From positions 18,477-82,476 of the forward strand of contig DATHGT010000258.1 of NCBI GenBank assembly GCA_035317605.1: a DNA stretch of 64,000 nt, written 5' to 3'. Below are positions 2,570 to 7,690 of the stretch, piece by piece. Source of the stretch: Candidatus Acidiferrum sp. GTDB lineage: Bacteria; Methylomirabilota; Methylomirabilia; Rokubacteriales; CSP1-6. The first letter of the stretch is position 1, and each line of letters begins with the position of its first letter. Under the pieces are notes generated by a model. It was not told the origin of the DNA and ran no database searches. It saw only the letters and a list, made by a program, of their open reading frames with translations. The translations under genes were made by a program, and so were the position numbers.

Positions 2570-3229
2570 CTAGACCGACGACGACGGTGTCGAGGACGCC
2601 GGGCGGAGGGCACCCTCGCGACGGCGACGCACGGCTCGTCGGACGGCGTCCCCCAACCGGACGCCGAGCACGAGCACGACGATCGCGGCGTAGACGTATT
2701 GGTCCGTGCGGCCGACCTTGGCCAGCCACAGGAAGTGCAGCGCCGCGCACACCGCCGTGAAGTAGACGAGGCGGTGCAGGCGCTTCCAGTTGCGGGCGCC
2801 CAGGCGACGGATCATGCCGGTCGTCGACGTCGCGGCCAGCGGGATCAGGCTCGTGAGGGCCAGCATGCCGACCGTGATGTACGGGCGCTTGACGATGTCG
2901 GCGCCCATCTGGCCCCAGTTGAAGAAGTGATCCATGACGATCCACACGCTGAAGTGCACAGCGGCGTAGAAGAACGCGAAGAGTCCCAGCAGGCGGCGCA
3001 GCGGCATCTGCCAGGCCATGCCGGTCACGATGCGCAGCGGGGTCAGCGCGAGGCTCGCCAGCAGCAGGCGAAACGTCCAGTCGCCCAGCGTGTTGGTGAT
3101 GAAGCTGATCGGGTTGGCGGTGAGGTCGTCGTTCCAGGCCCGCCACCCGAGCAAGGCCAGCGGCATGAGCGCGACGATCCAGACGCCGACCTTGAGCGCG
3201 ATCCGGCCCCGCCGGCTCAGGACGATCAA
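2570..3229 (-). CDS. msrQ: MsrQ (YedZ), the heme-b membrane subunit of the periplasmic methionine sulfoxide reductase MsrPQ
   Basis: The C-terminal 219 aa of ORF 2570..3886 align to the E. coli MsrQ layout ([18 protein letters not shown]..., 6 TM helices, conserved His in FYAAVHF and ALHFLWL). The likely start is a TTG overlapping the msrP TGA stop (TTGA). The upstream part of the listed ORF is an out-of-frame shadow of msrP. Confidence 0.85.
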
Positions 3230-4182
3230 TAGAACTTCTTGAGGTCCATGCCGGCGTACAGGGACGCGACCTGATCGCCATAGCCGTTGAACATGAGCGT
3301 GTTGCGACGACGGAACTCGCCGATCCGGCGCTCGGTGGCCTGGCTCCAGCGGGGATGGCTGACTTCCGGATTGACGTTGGAGTAGAAGCCATACTCCTGA
3401 GCCGCGGCCGTGTTCCACGCCGTCTTGGGCTGGTCGGCGACGAGGCTGATCCGCACGATCGACTTGGCGCTCTTGAAGCCGTACTTCCACGGGATCACGA
3501 CCCGGATCGGCGCGCCGTTCTGGTTCGGGAGCACCTGCCCGTACATGCCGACGGTCAGCAGCGTGAGCGGATGCATCGCCTCGTCGAGCCGCAAGCCCTC
3601 CGTGTACGGCCAGTCGAGCCCGCCCAGGTTGAAGAGGCCCTTCTTCTGCCCGGGGAACTGCTCGGGATCGAGCAGGGTCGTGAACGCCACATACCTGGCC
3701 TGGCTCGTGGGCTCCACCCGCTTGAGCAGCGCGCCGAGCGGAAAGCCGATCCACGGAATGATCATCGACCACGCCTCGACGCAGCGGAGCGAGTAAACGC
3801 GCTCCTCCAGGGGAAACGCGCGCAGCAGCTCGTCGACGTCGAAGGTCTTCGGCTTGGCCACGAGCCCGTCGACCTTTACCGTCCACGGCCGCGGCTTCAG
3901 CGTGCCGGCCAGCCGCGCCGGGTCCTCCTTGTTGACTCCGAACTCGTAGAAGTTGTTGTAGGTCGTGGCGCTCTCGAACTTGGTCGGGGGTTCCTTCACG
4001 CTGAACGGTTCATTGCGCGCGGCCTTGAGCGGCTGGCCCTGAGGCTGCGCCGCCTCGGCGCCGGCCATGCCCGCGCCGAGCACGAGCGCGCCGGCCCCGG
4101 CCATGAACGCGCGGCGGTCCAGGTAGAGACGCTCGGGCGTGATGTCCGACGGGCGAAACCGGGGAGCGCGACGAATCAGCAT
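3226..4182 (-). CDS. msrP: MsrP (YedY), the molybdopterin-dependent periplasmic protein-methionine-sulfoxide reductase catalytic subunit, with a Tat signal
   Basis: [42 protein letters not shown] is a twin-arginine leader. Sulfite-oxidase-family motifs follow ([47 protein letters not shown]). The start is at M169 of ORF 3226..4686 (ATG 4182), overlapping the response-regulator stop at 4176. Confidence 0.9.
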
Positions 4183-4868
4183 CGATCCACCTCCGTGAAT
4201 GTGTAGCCCTGACCGTGCACGGTGAGGATGAACGCGGGACGGTCGGGGTCGGTTTCGAACTTGCGGCGCAGCCGCAGGATGTGCGTGTCGACGGTTCGCG
4301 TGGTGGGAAACCGTTCGTAGCCCCACACCTCGTCGAGCAACCGCTCGCGGGTGACGACCTCGCCGCGGTGCTCGAGCAGGTAGACGAGCAGCTCGAACTC
4401 CTTGCGGGTGAGCCCGACCGGGCGCCCGGCCCTGAACGCCTGGCGTCCGCGCGGCCGCACGCGCGCGTCGCCGAAGGCGAACTCTTCCACCTTGTGGCGC
4501 GGCCCGGGCCGGCGCAGCACCGCGCGCACCCGCGCCAGCAGCTCGCGCAGCGAGAACGGCTTGGTGATGTAGTCGTCGGCGCCCAGCTCGAGCCCGCGGA
4601 CACGGTCGCTCTCCTCGCCCCGCGCGGTGAGCATGATGATCGGCACGTCGATGCCCTGGCCCCGCAGCTCGCGGCACACGTCCCACCCGCTGAGCCCCGG
4701 CATCATGATGTCGAGCAGGATGAGGTCGGGCGCCTCCCGCGCGGCCACGGTGAGCGCCTCGCGTCCGTCCATGGCCGTGGAGGTCTGGTAACCCTCGAAG
4801 CGCAGGTTGTCCTCCAGACCGCGCACGATCTCCGGCTCGTCGTCCACGATGAGGATGCGCGACATCAC
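4176..4868 (-). CDS. OmpR/PhoB-family response regulator (HprR/CusR-like)
   Basis: The receiver domain shows [10 protein letters not shown]...D...[14 protein letters not shown] winged-helix C-terminus shows ...[27 protein letters not shown]...[13 protein letters not shown]. Confidence 0.9.
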
Positions 4869-5602: not shown

Positions 5603-7146
5603 GTCGTCTCCGTCGTGATCGGAATGCGAATCGTGAAGCGGCTGCCCGCTCCGGGCGCACTCTCCACGATAACCCGGCCGCCGTGAGCCTCGGCCACGTG
5701 GCGCACGAGGGCCAGCCCCACCCCGCTGCCGCGCCGGCCCTGGGTCTCGCTGTGTCCAACCCGGTAGAACTTCTCGAAGATCCTGGCCTGCTCGGCGCGC
5801 GGGATCCCGATCCCTTCGTCGGCGACTGACAGCGCCAGGGCATCGTCGGTGACCGTCGCCTCGACGCGAACGGTCTTGCGGTCCGCCGAATACTTGATCG
5901 CGTTGTCGACGAGATTGGCCAGCGCCTGGGCGACGGCATCGGCGTCGAGCGGCACCTCCGGCAGGTCCGGGGCGACGTGGACGTCGACCTTGAAGCCCTC
6001 TCGGGTCAGCGGATAGGCGAAGGCGTCGACCACGTCGCGCACCAGCGGCTCGATCGCGGTGGGCACGCGCTCGTAGCGACGGCGCCCCCCCTCGATGCGC
6101 GAGAAGTCGAGCACGTTGTCGATCAGGCGCGAGAGCCGCTCGCTCTCGCGGGTGATCACCCGGTAGTACTCGCGGCGAGCGGCCTCGTCGCGCACGCGGT
6201 CCATCTCCAGGGTCTCGCCGAACATTCGGATCACCGACAGCGGAGTCTTCAGGTCGTGGGAGACGTTGGCCACGAAGTCGGACTTGAGCCGCGCCATCTC
6301 GCTCTCGCGTCGCACGAGGCGATAGGTGACCACCAGCCCCGCCACGATCACGACGAGCAGGACCCCGAACGCGCTCGTGAACAGCATGATCTGCCGCCGC
6401 ACCGAGTGCCGTGCGGACGCGCCCGGCGGCTGGTAGAGCGCCACCCGCCACGTGGGCAGCGCCTGGCGAAACGGCGCCGTGACGACCAGGCTCGCCCCGG
6501 CCACGGCCGCGGCGTTGGAGATCGGGCGTCCGGTCTCGTCCACGATCACGCAGATGATCGGTGAATCGAGCGCCCTCAGGGTACGGTCGAGGACTTCGTG
6601 CTGGAGCGTGGCGGGGTCGCGCGTGAGGACGGCGAGCACGGGGGCGCCGTCCCGGCCGCGCAGCACGGTGGCCAGCAGCGAGCGGTCACCCGCGACCACG
6701 TCGCGCCGGCCGCCGCGTTCCCAGAGCCCGCGCGAGACTTCGCCGAGGAGCGCCGCGAACACGGCGGCGTCGCCCTCGGCCGGCGCGGCGGGGTAGATCA
6801 ACCGGCCGCCGCGGTCGAACAGGTACAGGCGTTGGACGAGCGGGTTCGCGCGCGCGAAGGCCTCGAGCGTCTCGCGCGCGAGGTCTCCGCGCTCGACGAT
6901 GGTCGTGAGCCGCCCGAGCAACTCGTCGTCGCGCTGGCGCAGCAGCATCTCGATCTTGTCGGCGGCCATCGCGGCCACGTCGCGCGCCTGCTCGCGGAAG
7001 AGCAGATCGGCCGAGCGCTCCCACTGGCGCAGCGACACGTAGCCGAGCCCGGCCACGATCAGGGCGGGAATCACGATGGCCAGCGCGAAGATCCAGAACC
7101 GTCGCGCCCCGGTTTCGCCGGGGCGGTCCTGCTGAGATCGGACCAC
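5599..7146 (-). CDS. Sensor histidine kinase with a periplasmic sensing domain (HprS/CusS-like)
   Basis: TM1 is FWIFALAIVIPALIVAGLGYV, followed by a ~200-aa periplasmic domain and TM2 IMLFTSAFGVLLVVIVAGLVV. The H-box is VANVSHDLKTPLSVI. The HATPase region shows LANLVDNAIKYS...DEGIGIP...GSGVGLALV. The start is GTG at 7146. Confidence 0.85.
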   Translation of the reverse strand: MVRSQQDRPGETGARRFWIFALAIVIPALIVAGLGYVSLRQWERSADLLFREQARDVAAMAADKIEMLLRQRDDELLGRLTTIVERGDLARETLEAFARANPLVQRLYLFDRGGRLIYPAAPAEGDAAVFAALLGEVSRGLWERGGRRDVVAGDRSLLATVLRGRDGAPVLAVLTRDPATLQHEVLDRTLRALDSPIICVIVDETGRPISNAAAVAGASLVVTAPFRQALPTWRVALYQPPGASARHSVRRQIMLFTSAFGVLLVVIVAGLVVTYRLVRRESEMARLKSDFVANVSHDLKTPLSVIRMFGETLEMDRVRDEAARREYYRVITRESERLSRLIDNVLDFSRIEGGRRRYERVPTAIEPLVRDVVDAFAYPLTREGFKVDVHVAPDLPEVPLDADAVAQALANLVDNAIKYSADRKTVRVEATVTDDALALSVADEGIGIPRAEQARIFEKFYRVGHSETQGRRGSGVGLALVRHVAEAHGGRVIVESAPGAGSRFTIRIPITTETT

Positions 7147-7150
7147 GCCG

Positions 7151-7690
7151 CTATCCCCGCTCGGCGAGGAGTCGGCGGATCACCGTTTCGGTTTCGTCGT
7201 AGGCGCCCTCGCCGATGTGGCGATGGCGCACGATGCCCTTGCGGTCGACGAGCACTGCGGTCGGCCAGGCCCACACGCCGAACCGCTGCCAGATCGCCAT
7301 GTCGTTGTCCAGGACGACCGGATAGAGGATGCCGAGCCTGCGCACCGCCGCCCGCACGCTGTCGGTCGGCTTCTCCCAGGAGAACTCCGGCGTGTGCACG
7401 CCCACGATGGTGAGCCCGTCACGCTCGTACTTGCCGTGCCAGACCCGCAACTGCGGGATCACGTTCTTGCAGTTGATTCACCCGTAGGTCCAGAAATCCA
7501 CCAGCACCACGCGCCCCCGCAGCGCCGCCGGCGCCAGGGGCTCGCTGTTGATCCACGGCCCGCCCACGATCTCCGGCGCCGGCCGATCGAGCGCCGGCCC
7601 CCTGCCCTGCGCGCCACCGTGAAGCGCGATGCCGACGAGCGCGAGACAAACCAGGGCCGCAATAAACGCCGACCGAAGCACCAAGATCAT
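7151..7690 (-). CDS. TlpA/ResA-like thioredoxin-fold thiol:disulfide oxidoreductase, predicted selenoprotein with an in-frame UGA (Sec) at 7478..7480 in a UxxC motif
   Basis: ORF 7478..8068 ends ...RVVLVDFWTYG at a TGA. The same frame continues INCKNVIPQLRVWHGKYERDGLTIVGVHTPEFSWEK... as ORF 7151..7462. The joined sequence is VLVDFWTYG-U-INCKNV, the canonical W-x-x-C-x-x-C redox site with the first Cys replaced by TGA. A 7-bp hairpin (caactgc...gcaguug) begins 2 nt after the UGA. The N-terminus has a signal/anchor (MILVLRSAFIAALVCLALVGIALHG) and the stop is a TAG 4 nt before the HK start. Confidence 0.7.
7448..7475 (-). promoter_or_regulatory. SECIS-like stem-loop immediately 3' of the UGA in the TlpA-like gene
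   Basis: On the - strand the sequence is UGA-au-CAACUGC-aagaacgugauccc-GCAGUUG, a perfect 7-bp stem with a 14-nt loop. Confidence 0.5.

Follow-up and report, generated by a model that had tools for sequence, protein, structure and literature searches.

A candidate envelope oxidative-damage repair operon of Rokubacteria with a clade-specific TatT-like gene inside its two-component system

Introduction

Why would a gene for a secreted tetratricopeptide repeat (TPR) protein lie between the sensor kinase and the response regulator of a two-component system, in a gene cluster that ends with msrPQ? This question is raised by a 64,000-nucleotide stretch of DNA from Candidatus Acidiferrum sp. (contig DATHGT010000258.1), referred to below as the window, which carries six co-directional genes on the minus strand between positions 2570 and 7690. 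The order of transcription would be selenoprotein (TlpA-like), kinase, TPR protein, regulator, MsrP and MsrQ. The chances are about even that the cluster is a clade-specific version of a self-contained operon, distributed across Rokubacteria, for the repair of oxidative damage in the cell envelope. The six genes are as follows.

7151 to 7690, minus strand: membrane-anchored periplasmic thioredoxin-fold selenoprotein of the DipZ-C/TlpA/ResA superfamily, active site U-I-N-C (Pfam, DipZ alignment, conserved TGA)
5599 to 7146, minus strand: sensor histidine kinase with a first transmembrane helix, a periplasmic dCache-like domain of about 215 residues, a second transmembrane helix, and DHp and CA domains (HisKA and HATPase_c, Foldseek)
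4865 to 5602, minus strand: secreted all-helical TPR protein of the TatT/BstC/RMD superfamily (Pfam, profile, AF2 and Foldseek)
4176 to 4868, minus strand: response regulator of the OmpR/PhoB family (Response_reg and Trans_reg_C)
3226 to 4182, minus strand: MsrP, periplasmic molybdopterin methionine-sulfoxide reductase (NCBIfam equivalog NF003767, twin-arginine signal)
2570 to 3229, minus strand: MsrQ, membrane haem-binding electron donor to MsrP (NCBIfam NF003831, Pfam Ferric_reduct)

Architecture of the Operon

The codon-position composition of the six frames indicates, in a genome of about 70% GC, that they are real coding genes. The GC content of third codon positions is 0.87–0.95 across the six (0.87 being that of the short N-terminal TlpA fragment) and that of second positions is 0.44–0.53. 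The genes are tightly packed. The selenoprotein gene stops at TAG (7153-7151), and the kinase gene starts after a 4-nt gap with GTG at 7146. The kinase and TPR genes overlap in ATGA (5602-5599), and the TPR and regulator genes in GTGA (4868-4865), which is a 4-nt overlap with the GTG start and a 1-nt overlap if the next ATG is the start. The regulator gene and msrP share the 7 nt ATGCTGA (4182-4176), and msrP and msrQ share TTGA (3229-3226). Moreover, GGAG-type Shine–Dalgarno motifs stand 5' of the TPR, regulator and MsrP starts, within the preceding coding sequences, as translational coupling requires.

A consensus scan of positions 2300-7900 gave 0 matches to a sigma-70-like promoter or an intrinsic terminator, which is weak evidence, the consensus being uninformative for this phylum. 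Because the junctions are overlaps or gaps of at most 4 nt, no internal promoter or terminator is matched, and a single conserved cis-element precedes the first gene, the six genes likely form one transcription unit. Reading the reverse strand confirmed the gene order and all five junctions given in a first-pass annotation of this DNA, and its proposal of a single operon is judged likely on account of the tight junctions and the lone cis-element.

Conservation of the Core and History of the TPR Gene

The cluster was compared with relatives in a set of 66 loci, examined by tblastn and a gene caller based on third-position GC. Homologues of the TPR protein are found almost only in Candidatus Rokubacteria/Methylomirabilota. 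The same six-gene order recurs in L001 (a 459-kb contig), in L005 and L006 (NCBI contigs of metagenome-assembled genomes) and in the metagenome contigs L067-L071. Together with the window they make an embedded-TPR clade of nine loci, in which the TPR protein is 68–95% identical to that of the window, and no homologue at or below 65% identity is embedded. The ATGA and GTGA overlaps are kept in L001 and L005, and the coordinates of L067 are consistent with them. Within the clade, the reading frames of the TPR gene are intact and its dN/dS is 0.24-0.45. Between the window and L005, identity is 68% for the TPR protein and 70% for the sensor domain of the kinase, against 83–91% for the rest of the cluster. 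The synteny check suggested by the first-pass annotation thus came out in favour of the TPR reading frame, within this same clade.

The core of selenocysteine (Sec)-containing TlpA-like protein, kinase, regulator and MsrPQ is also present in L010, L011, L036, L038, L044, L054, L062, L102 and L104. Five of these (L036, L038, L044, L054 and L062) have the order TlpA(Sec)-kinase-regulator-MsrP-MsrQ without an inserted TPR gene, while L010 and L011 have the permuted order MsrPQ-TlpA-kinase-regulator. As read from these gene orders, the conserved Rokubacteria unit is TlpA(Sec)-kinase-regulator-MsrP-MsrQ, without the TPR gene. The TPR protein does not belong to the module invariably, as in most relatives the two-component–msrPQ operon has no embedded TPR gene.

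In the genomes with these TPR-free or permuted orders (L010, L011, L036, L038, L044, L054 and L062), the TPR gene lies 2–4 kb off. Its commonest site is a divergent four-gene operon of GT2 glycosyltransferase, NAD_binding_4/epimerase (fatty-acyl-reductase-like), TPR and SAM methyltransferase (Pfam), with fumarase genes beyond. With HK for the kinase, RR for the regulator, Epim for the epimerase-type enzyme, MT for the methyltransferase and "box" for the upstream element described below, the order in L102 is FumN-FumC-<MT<TPR<Epim<GT2-box-TlpA-HK-RR-MsrPQ, with flipped equivalents in L038, L044, L054 and L062. L104 has FumN-FumC-box-TlpA-HK-RR-MsrPQ, and the window FumN-FumC-box-TlpA-HK-TPR-RR-MsrPQ. 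No TPR homologue occurs within 9 kb in L103 and L104, where the two-component operon is present; L102-L104 were fetched via the kinase and not via the TPR protein, which makes them an unbiased check on its presence. On the short contigs L025 and L035, the TPR gene is directly upstream of msrP-msrQ with no two-component system visible, and in L002 it is downstream of msrPQ with four sugar-metabolism genes between. The TPR gene is found near the two-component system in at least five different arrangements.

Neither a TPR paralogue nor a GT2/Epim/MT block was found elsewhere in the 64-kb window. Comparison of L102 and its flipped equivalents with the window points to an origin of the embedded gene in the neighbouring block. 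In the simplest history, the TPR gene would have come to lie within the kinase–regulator pair through a short-range rearrangement in which the genes for glycosyltransferase, reductase and methyltransferase were lost. On this distribution, the TPR protein appears to be a phylum-wide protein with its own function, repeatedly but not obligatorily tied to the operon.

In another lineage, at L008:1207-3049 and on a 31-kb JGI contig, a TPR-methyltransferase pair is followed by a 535-residue sulfite-oxidase-type molybdoenzyme (Oxidored_molyb and Mo-co_dimer) and not by MsrP. Such loci give this TPR family a second, different molybdoenzyme neighbour.

Upstream Element and Probable Promoter

Aligning the regions 5' of the first gene revealed a direct repeat, after which comes a -10-like hexamer.

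7724 to 7740, minus strand: putative regulator box, direct repeat TTGACA-TTGCG-TTGACA with an 11-bp period, of PhoB/PhoP type, starting 50 nt upstream of the first ATG
7698 to 7703, minus strand: -10-like hexamer CACTGT (consensus [C/G]A-N3-T), 20 nt after the second repeat and 7 nt before the ATG

Variants of the repeat, TTCACA and GTGACG, occur in other loci. The pattern TT[GC]ACA-N5-[TG]TGAC has 9 matches in 1.72 Mb (both strands; window and loci), where base composition predicts about 0.3, and all nine lie upstream of the TlpA-like gene; as the pattern was derived from the very sites counted, the figure speaks for its specificity and is not an independent discovery. The kinase-centred loci L102-L104 contribute three further matches, again all upstream of TlpA, which brings the total to 12. 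No second box was found upstream of msrP or elsewhere in the window or the loci.

The spacing of box, 20 nt, hexamer, 6 or 7 nt and ATG is identical in six of eight loci, and the first ATG (7690) has no Shine–Dalgarno motif before it, unlike the internal starts. For these two reasons, the operon mRNA is probably leaderless or near-leaderless. The box resembles Pho-type direct repeats, and would be a PhoB/PhoP-type activator site that overlaps the -35 region of a leaderless promoter, an arrangement that fits positive autoregulation.

The Selenoprotein

The first gene contains two further features.

7478 to 7480, minus strand: in-frame UGA read as selenocysteine (conserved TGA, alignment to a catalytic Cys)
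7444 to 7457, minus strand: SECIS-like (selenocysteine insertion sequence) hairpin CCCGC-AGUU-GCGGG, 21 nt downstream of the UGA, the second base of its loop being G

In Pfam, the product matches AhpC-TSA, Thioredoxin_8 and Redoxin. The TGA (7480-7478) stands for the first Cys of a CxxC motif, in FWTYG-U-INC, and is aligned to the first Cys of the DipZ CINC motif. With Cys put at this position, the alignment runs unbroken through the C-terminal domain of Mycobacterium tuberculosis DipZ (FWAYSCINC; 2hyx; E 3e-38). SOQ1 and NHLRC2 are matched as well, TlpA only distantly (E 5e-6) and the PilB N-domain weakly (2h30, 2fy6). The original label "TlpA-like" is therefore right as to the thioredoxin-fold superfamily but loose, the DipZ C-terminal domain being the nearest solved relative. 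The codon is conserved in 11 sequences, namely the window and 10 fetched loci (two of identical sequence), at about 50–85% protein identity. A pseudogene or frameshift is ruled out, since the TGA is kept in all 11 and homology is unbroken across it, and the gene was correctly called a selenoprotein at the outset. Public gene callers break it into two open reading frames.

About 40 nt after the TGA are nearly invariant, synonymous positions too, and the block GATCCCGCAGTTGCGGG, which includes a rare Leu codon (TTG), is the same in 11/11 sequences even where changes would be silent. The CCCGC-AGUU-GCGGG hairpin is part of the minimum-free-energy fold, which favours it over CAACUGC...GCAGUUG, a hairpin picked by eye as the SECIS and now rejected. 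Its folding-energy z-score of -0.22 is not significant, no better than shuffled sequence and unremarkable for such GC-rich RNA, so that the SECIS call is based on conservation and geometry and not on folding energy. ARAGORN found no tRNA-Sec in the 64-kb window.

The DipZ C-terminal domain, SOQ1, NHLRC2 and the PilB N-domain resemble the window protein in fold and in the active-site motif FW(T/A)Y(S/G)-C/U-INC. The window protein differs in having Sec in place of the first Cys and, compared with DipZ, in being stand-alone and signal-anchored, without a fused CcdA-like membrane domain. Its role would be thiol or sulfenate repair, or peroxide reduction. PilB, to which the matches here are weak, provides a precedent for a periplasmic thioredoxin-like domain that serves methionine-sulfoxide repair; MsrP itself needs no thiol reductant.

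Two related loci carry observations of their own. At L019:5104-5706, GT2-Epim-TPR is immediately preceded, on its own strand, by a Sec TlpA/DipZ-like gene that shares the UGA and the hairpin. Kinase, regulator and msrPQ are missing there, so the selenoprotein is separable from the two-component system. At L007:2266-3642 (plus strand), in a related Rokubacteria locus, a pyridine-nucleotide-disulfide oxidoreductase gene has an in-frame TGA in GGACINRG-TGA-IPKK, where CxxxxU replaces the redox-active CxxxxC and a hairpin AGACCUU-GGU-AAGGUCU follows. This gene sits downstream of TPR-methyltransferase-zfHC2, is split in public calls into frames of 45 and 407 residues, and probably encodes a second selenoprotein.

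MsrP and MsrQ

The last two genes were correctly named from the start, as both products exceed the NCBIfam equivalog cut-offs. MsrP scores 487.5 bits against NF003767 (cut-off 207) over residues 4-318, and its N-terminus holds a twin-arginine motif within DRRAFM. MsrQ, encoded directly after msrP, scores 166.3 bits against NF003831 (cut-off 130) and matches Pfam Ferric_reduct. By protein identity, MsrPQ would reduce methionine sulfoxide in periplasmic proteins.

Kinase and Regulator

No HAMP or PAS domain was detected in the kinase. Its periplasmic part has a dCache-type fold by Foldseek, with matches that include the partner-binding periplasmic domain of LuxQ (1zhh), and the best NCBIfam models for its core are PnpS, PhoR and WalK. 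The first periplasmic helix holds two methionines, Met60 and Met67, which are spaced by seven residues and show no variation at identities as low as 38%. A search with the sensor domain returned 35 proteins only, mostly fragmentary, so its taxonomic range is poorly sampled. The regulator is best matched by the models of PhoB (236 bits, cut-off 296), YycF, MtrA and RpaB.

A relationship to E. coli HprSR, which the first-pass annotation had taken as its paradigm, is not supported. The regulator reaches 168 bits against the HprR model NF008567 (cut-off 353), less than with PhoB, YycF and MtrA; the kinase core is PnpS/PhoR/WalK-like and the sensor dCache-like. The model scores and the sensor fold rule out HprSR orthology. 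A genuine PhoR/PhoB pair is likewise ruled out, as both cut-offs are missed (200 vs 334 and 236 vs 296 bits) and the locus has no pst or phoU context.

In L005 and L006, the kinase is called as two open reading frames of 263 and 243 residues (L005:5485-7004, 7738-8244), and the regulator is short by about 57 residues, matching only residues 1-95 and 153-225. Decay of this copy, or a fault in the assembly, could explain both. On the long-read contigs L102-L104, the same genes show many frameshift-like fusions and splits.

The Embedded TPR Protein

The first-pass description of this protein as TPR-like with a signal peptide is upheld. Its fold is of the TatT/RMD lipid-binding type and not that of a generic TPR scaffold for protein–protein contacts. 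The Pfam model TAtT (PF16811) matches at 30.5 bits (gathering threshold 26.5), in part, over profile positions 93-200 of 263, and TPR_19 is above gathering too. The A1 family profile finds Es_TatT (8g52) at E 3.8e-9. An AF2 model with pLDDT 90.6 gave, among its best full-length Foldseek matches, RMD3/PTPIP51 (7cc7; TM 0.72/0.77), 8g52 (TMq 0.72), BstC (7t1s; 0.65) and Tp0956 (3u64; 0.64). The signal peptide is cleavable and there is no lipobox, nor a Cys in the signal or the mature part, so the protein is predicted to be soluble and not a lipoprotein. It is not Met-rich.

In solved members of the TatT superfamily, palmitate or sterols occupy an internal pocket (PMC11713862). On profile and model evidence, the window protein belongs to this superfamily, being of the fatty-acid- or sterol-binding type, and lipid binding is predicted for it here. 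The former neighbours of its gene, a glycosyltransferase, an acyl-reductase-like enzyme and a methyltransferase, fit a lipid-related role. It shares with Tp0956, Es_TatT (8G52), BstC (7T1S) and eukaryotic RMD/PTPIP51 an all-helical TPR-like fold, and with the bacterial proteins a periplasmic location. About 25% of TatTs have non-TRAP genomic partners (PMC11713862), and the window gene likewise does not stand beside TRAP PQM genes. No TRAP gene appears in the Pfam-labelled gene lists; the other fetched loci were labelled against a small reference set and were unscreened for TRAP. The T component of TatT systems is a periplasm-facing lipoprotein, whereas the window protein has no lipobox, no TRAP or RND partner nearby, and a gene embedded in a two-component operon.

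Flanking Regions

A GC-rich hairpin without a T tract, GCGGGC-AAA-GCCCGC (7753-7767, minus strand), separates the fumarase beta stop (7773) from the regulator box. It could serve the upstream fumarase/peptide-transporter unit as a terminator, insulating the operon promoter. Downstream, a large signal-peptide protein of more than 809 residues (3-2453, minus strand) follows msrQ after a gap of about 115 nt, which holds another TTGACA. It is unlike the Phosphodiest-M16-M16 genes found after msrQ in L001, L005 and L104, and this difference puts the downstream synteny border at msrQ. A 90-nt tRNA-Asn reported by ARAGORN at 8996-9085 (plus strand), antisense within the fumarase alpha-subunit reading frame (8459-9403, minus strand), is most likely a false positive.

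Comparison with Known Systems

Two-component control of adjacent msrPQ-type genes is already known, from HprSR, OrhKR and Cpx. E. coli HprSR (YedVW/HypVW) is likewise a two-component system beside msrPQ and in control of it, with an extra periplasmic protein co-transcribed with msrPQ. The yedWV (hprRS) genes form a separate operon in opposite orientation beside hiuH-msrPQ (10.1101/2021.09.09.459708), which bears out the first-pass statement that HprSR does not share one operon with msrPQ, while in the window all genes are in one unit. The HprS sensor is small and CusS-like, whereas that of the window is dCache-like and has about 215 residues. The HprR box is the inverted repeat CATTACAAAATTGTAATG (10.1101/2021.09.09.459708); no inverted repeat of this kind was found here, the sole conserved element 5' of the first gene being the direct repeat TTGACA-N5-TTGACA. 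Moreover, a selenoprotein and a TatT-like protein are both lacking in the E. coli system.

Similarly, OrhK/OrhR of uropathogenic E. coli (UPEC) is an oxidant-responsive two-component system immediately upstream of an MsrPQ-like pair and a third periplasmic protein, c3566-c3568 (PMC8550376). RT-PCR showed that orhR and c3566 are not co-transcribed, and the regulator site there is an inverted repeat (PMC8550376). C3566 and C3567 are only 23–28% identical to MsrQ and MsrP, whereas the window proteins pass the equivalog cut-offs. In addition, Cpx controls msrPQ-type genes in Salmonella, and extracytoplasmic function (ECF) sigma systems do so in other bacteria.

MtrAB-LpqB, CseABC and LuxPQ are three-component systems with an extracytoplasmic accessory protein, in which an exported protein is likewise encoded inside or beside the kinase/regulator pair. 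In the window an interaction is hypothetical, and sister lineages have orthologous operons that lack the accessory gene.

What would be new is the combination of four features: sensor, regulator and targets in one autoregulated operon; a PhoB-type regulator with a dCache sensor; a constant selenoprotein; and a clade-specific embedded TatT-like gene. The literature searched holds no description of these four features, of Rokubacteria selenoproteins, or of a TatT protein inside a two-component system.

Proposed Mechanism and Alternatives

In the proposed mechanism, one promoter, made of the direct-repeat box and the -10-like hexamer, would drive all six genes, with transcription starting at or beside the first ATG. 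The kinase would sense a periplasmic cue through its dCache-type domain. By analogy with HprS, whose periplasmic methionines have been proposed as an oxidant switch with MsrPQ feedback (10.1101/2021.09.09.459708), the likeliest cue would be an oxidant acting on Met60 and Met67. The kinase would phosphorylate the PhoB-like regulator, which would bind the box and raise transcription of the whole operon, its own gene and that of the kinase included. As outputs, MsrPQ would mend methionine sulfoxide, and the Sec-containing DipZ-like enzyme may treat oxidised thiols or peroxide. MsrPQ could also re-reduce the sensor, closing a negative feedback loop. Within this scheme, the TPR protein is tentatively seen, at somewhat less than even odds, as a carrier of hydrophobic ligands (lipids), an effector that was drawn into the stress regulon and is co-regulated with it.

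Several points weigh against this picture. The promoter model is built from comparative spacing, the pairing of this regulator with the box is assumed, and the box pattern was drawn from the very sites that it counts. dCache domains normally bind small molecules. About 45 of 58 GTDB loci with the TPR gene have no msrPQ within 8 kb, and its proximity to msrPQ elsewhere could be decaying ancestral synteny. Finally, kinase-modulating accessory proteins typically have their genes in this place, between kinase and regulator and translationally coupled, which favours a co-sensor.

The co-sensor is the alternative that survives best, although it stays doubtful. Here, the cluster would be a three-component system. 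The TPR protein would take up a hydrophobic ligand (e.g., a quinone or an oxidised lipid) and control the kinase by docking to its dCache domain, in the manner of LuxP with LuxQ and LpqB with MtrB. The conserved ATGA and GTGA overlaps around the TPR gene would suit stoichiometric co-production, the LuxQ domain among the sensor's structural matches is one that binds a partner, and between the window and L005 no parts of the cluster diverge faster than the TPR protein and the sensor domain. The recurrence of the TPR gene near the two-component system, in its several arrangements, points the same way, as does the contact of the TatT protein Tp0956 with a periplasmic partner protein (PMC11713862). 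Set against this are the operons without an embedded TPR gene in L010, L011, L036, L044, L054, L062 and L102, the lack of any nearby homologue in L103 and L104, and the phylum-wide spread of the family, mostly in unrelated contexts. Operons without the TPR gene weaken an obligate co-sensor or chaperone function, and an indispensable co-sensor is ranked as less likely than the co-regulated effector. An extension of the idea is quite improbable: a TatT-type protein would present its ligand to the dCache kinase, and lipid damage or a lipid/quinone redox signal would trigger repair by MsrPQ and the Sec-oxidoreductase. If true, the TatT superfamily would gain its first signalling role, and lipid status would be tied to the repair of methionine sulfoxide.

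A different cue is unlikely. The two-component system could report a small-molecule or nutrient signal through the dCache pocket, msrPQ being just one output, given that dCache domains usually bind metabolites, that PhoB, YycF and MtrA are the best regulator models and the box is Pho-like, and that the gene next after msrQ is Phosphodiest in L001 and L005. This reading is opposed by the missed PhoR and PhoB cut-offs, the lack of pst or phoU genes nearby, the invariant periplasmic methionine pair, and the redox-repair genes as the only outputs under the box.

It is distinctly improbable that the TPR gene is a neutral hitch-hiker, left in the operon without a functional link when a rearrangement lost the glycosyltransferase–reductase–methyltransferase block. 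The block lies immediately beside the operon in relatives (L102, L036 and others), which makes a short-range move mechanistically easy, and the many TPR loci far from msrPQ agree with it. Yet the neighbours were lost and the TPR gene was kept, and embedding persists down to 68% TPR identity with preserved overlaps, intact frames and the dN/dS given above. Least probable by far is a holdase or adaptor that hands oxidised periplasmic proteins to MsrP: TPR-MsrP-MsrQ adjacency on the short contigs L025 and L035 and the extra periplasmic proteins co-transcribed with msrPQ-type genes in E. coli (HiuH) and UPEC (C3568) speak for it, but the nearest folds are lipid-binding TatT/BstC/PTPIP51 and not chaperone TPRs, the usual neighbours are glycosyltransferase, reductase and methyltransferase genes, and the protein is not rich in methionine.

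Significance

The locus does not overturn a current concept and is not conceptually surprising; its interest is for those who work on TatT proteins, selenoproteins or oxidative stress of the envelope. It offers testable parts for heterologous reconstruction, namely the 17-bp box, the two invariant sensor methionines and the defined Sec site. As some operons have the embedded TPR gene and others lack it, they provide a natural experiment on TatT-like proteins outside TRAP transporters. Since MsrPQ regulation has been worked out in few Proteobacteria only (HprSR, Cpx, OrhKR and ECF sigma systems), the operon would represent an independent solution in an uncultured soil phylum.

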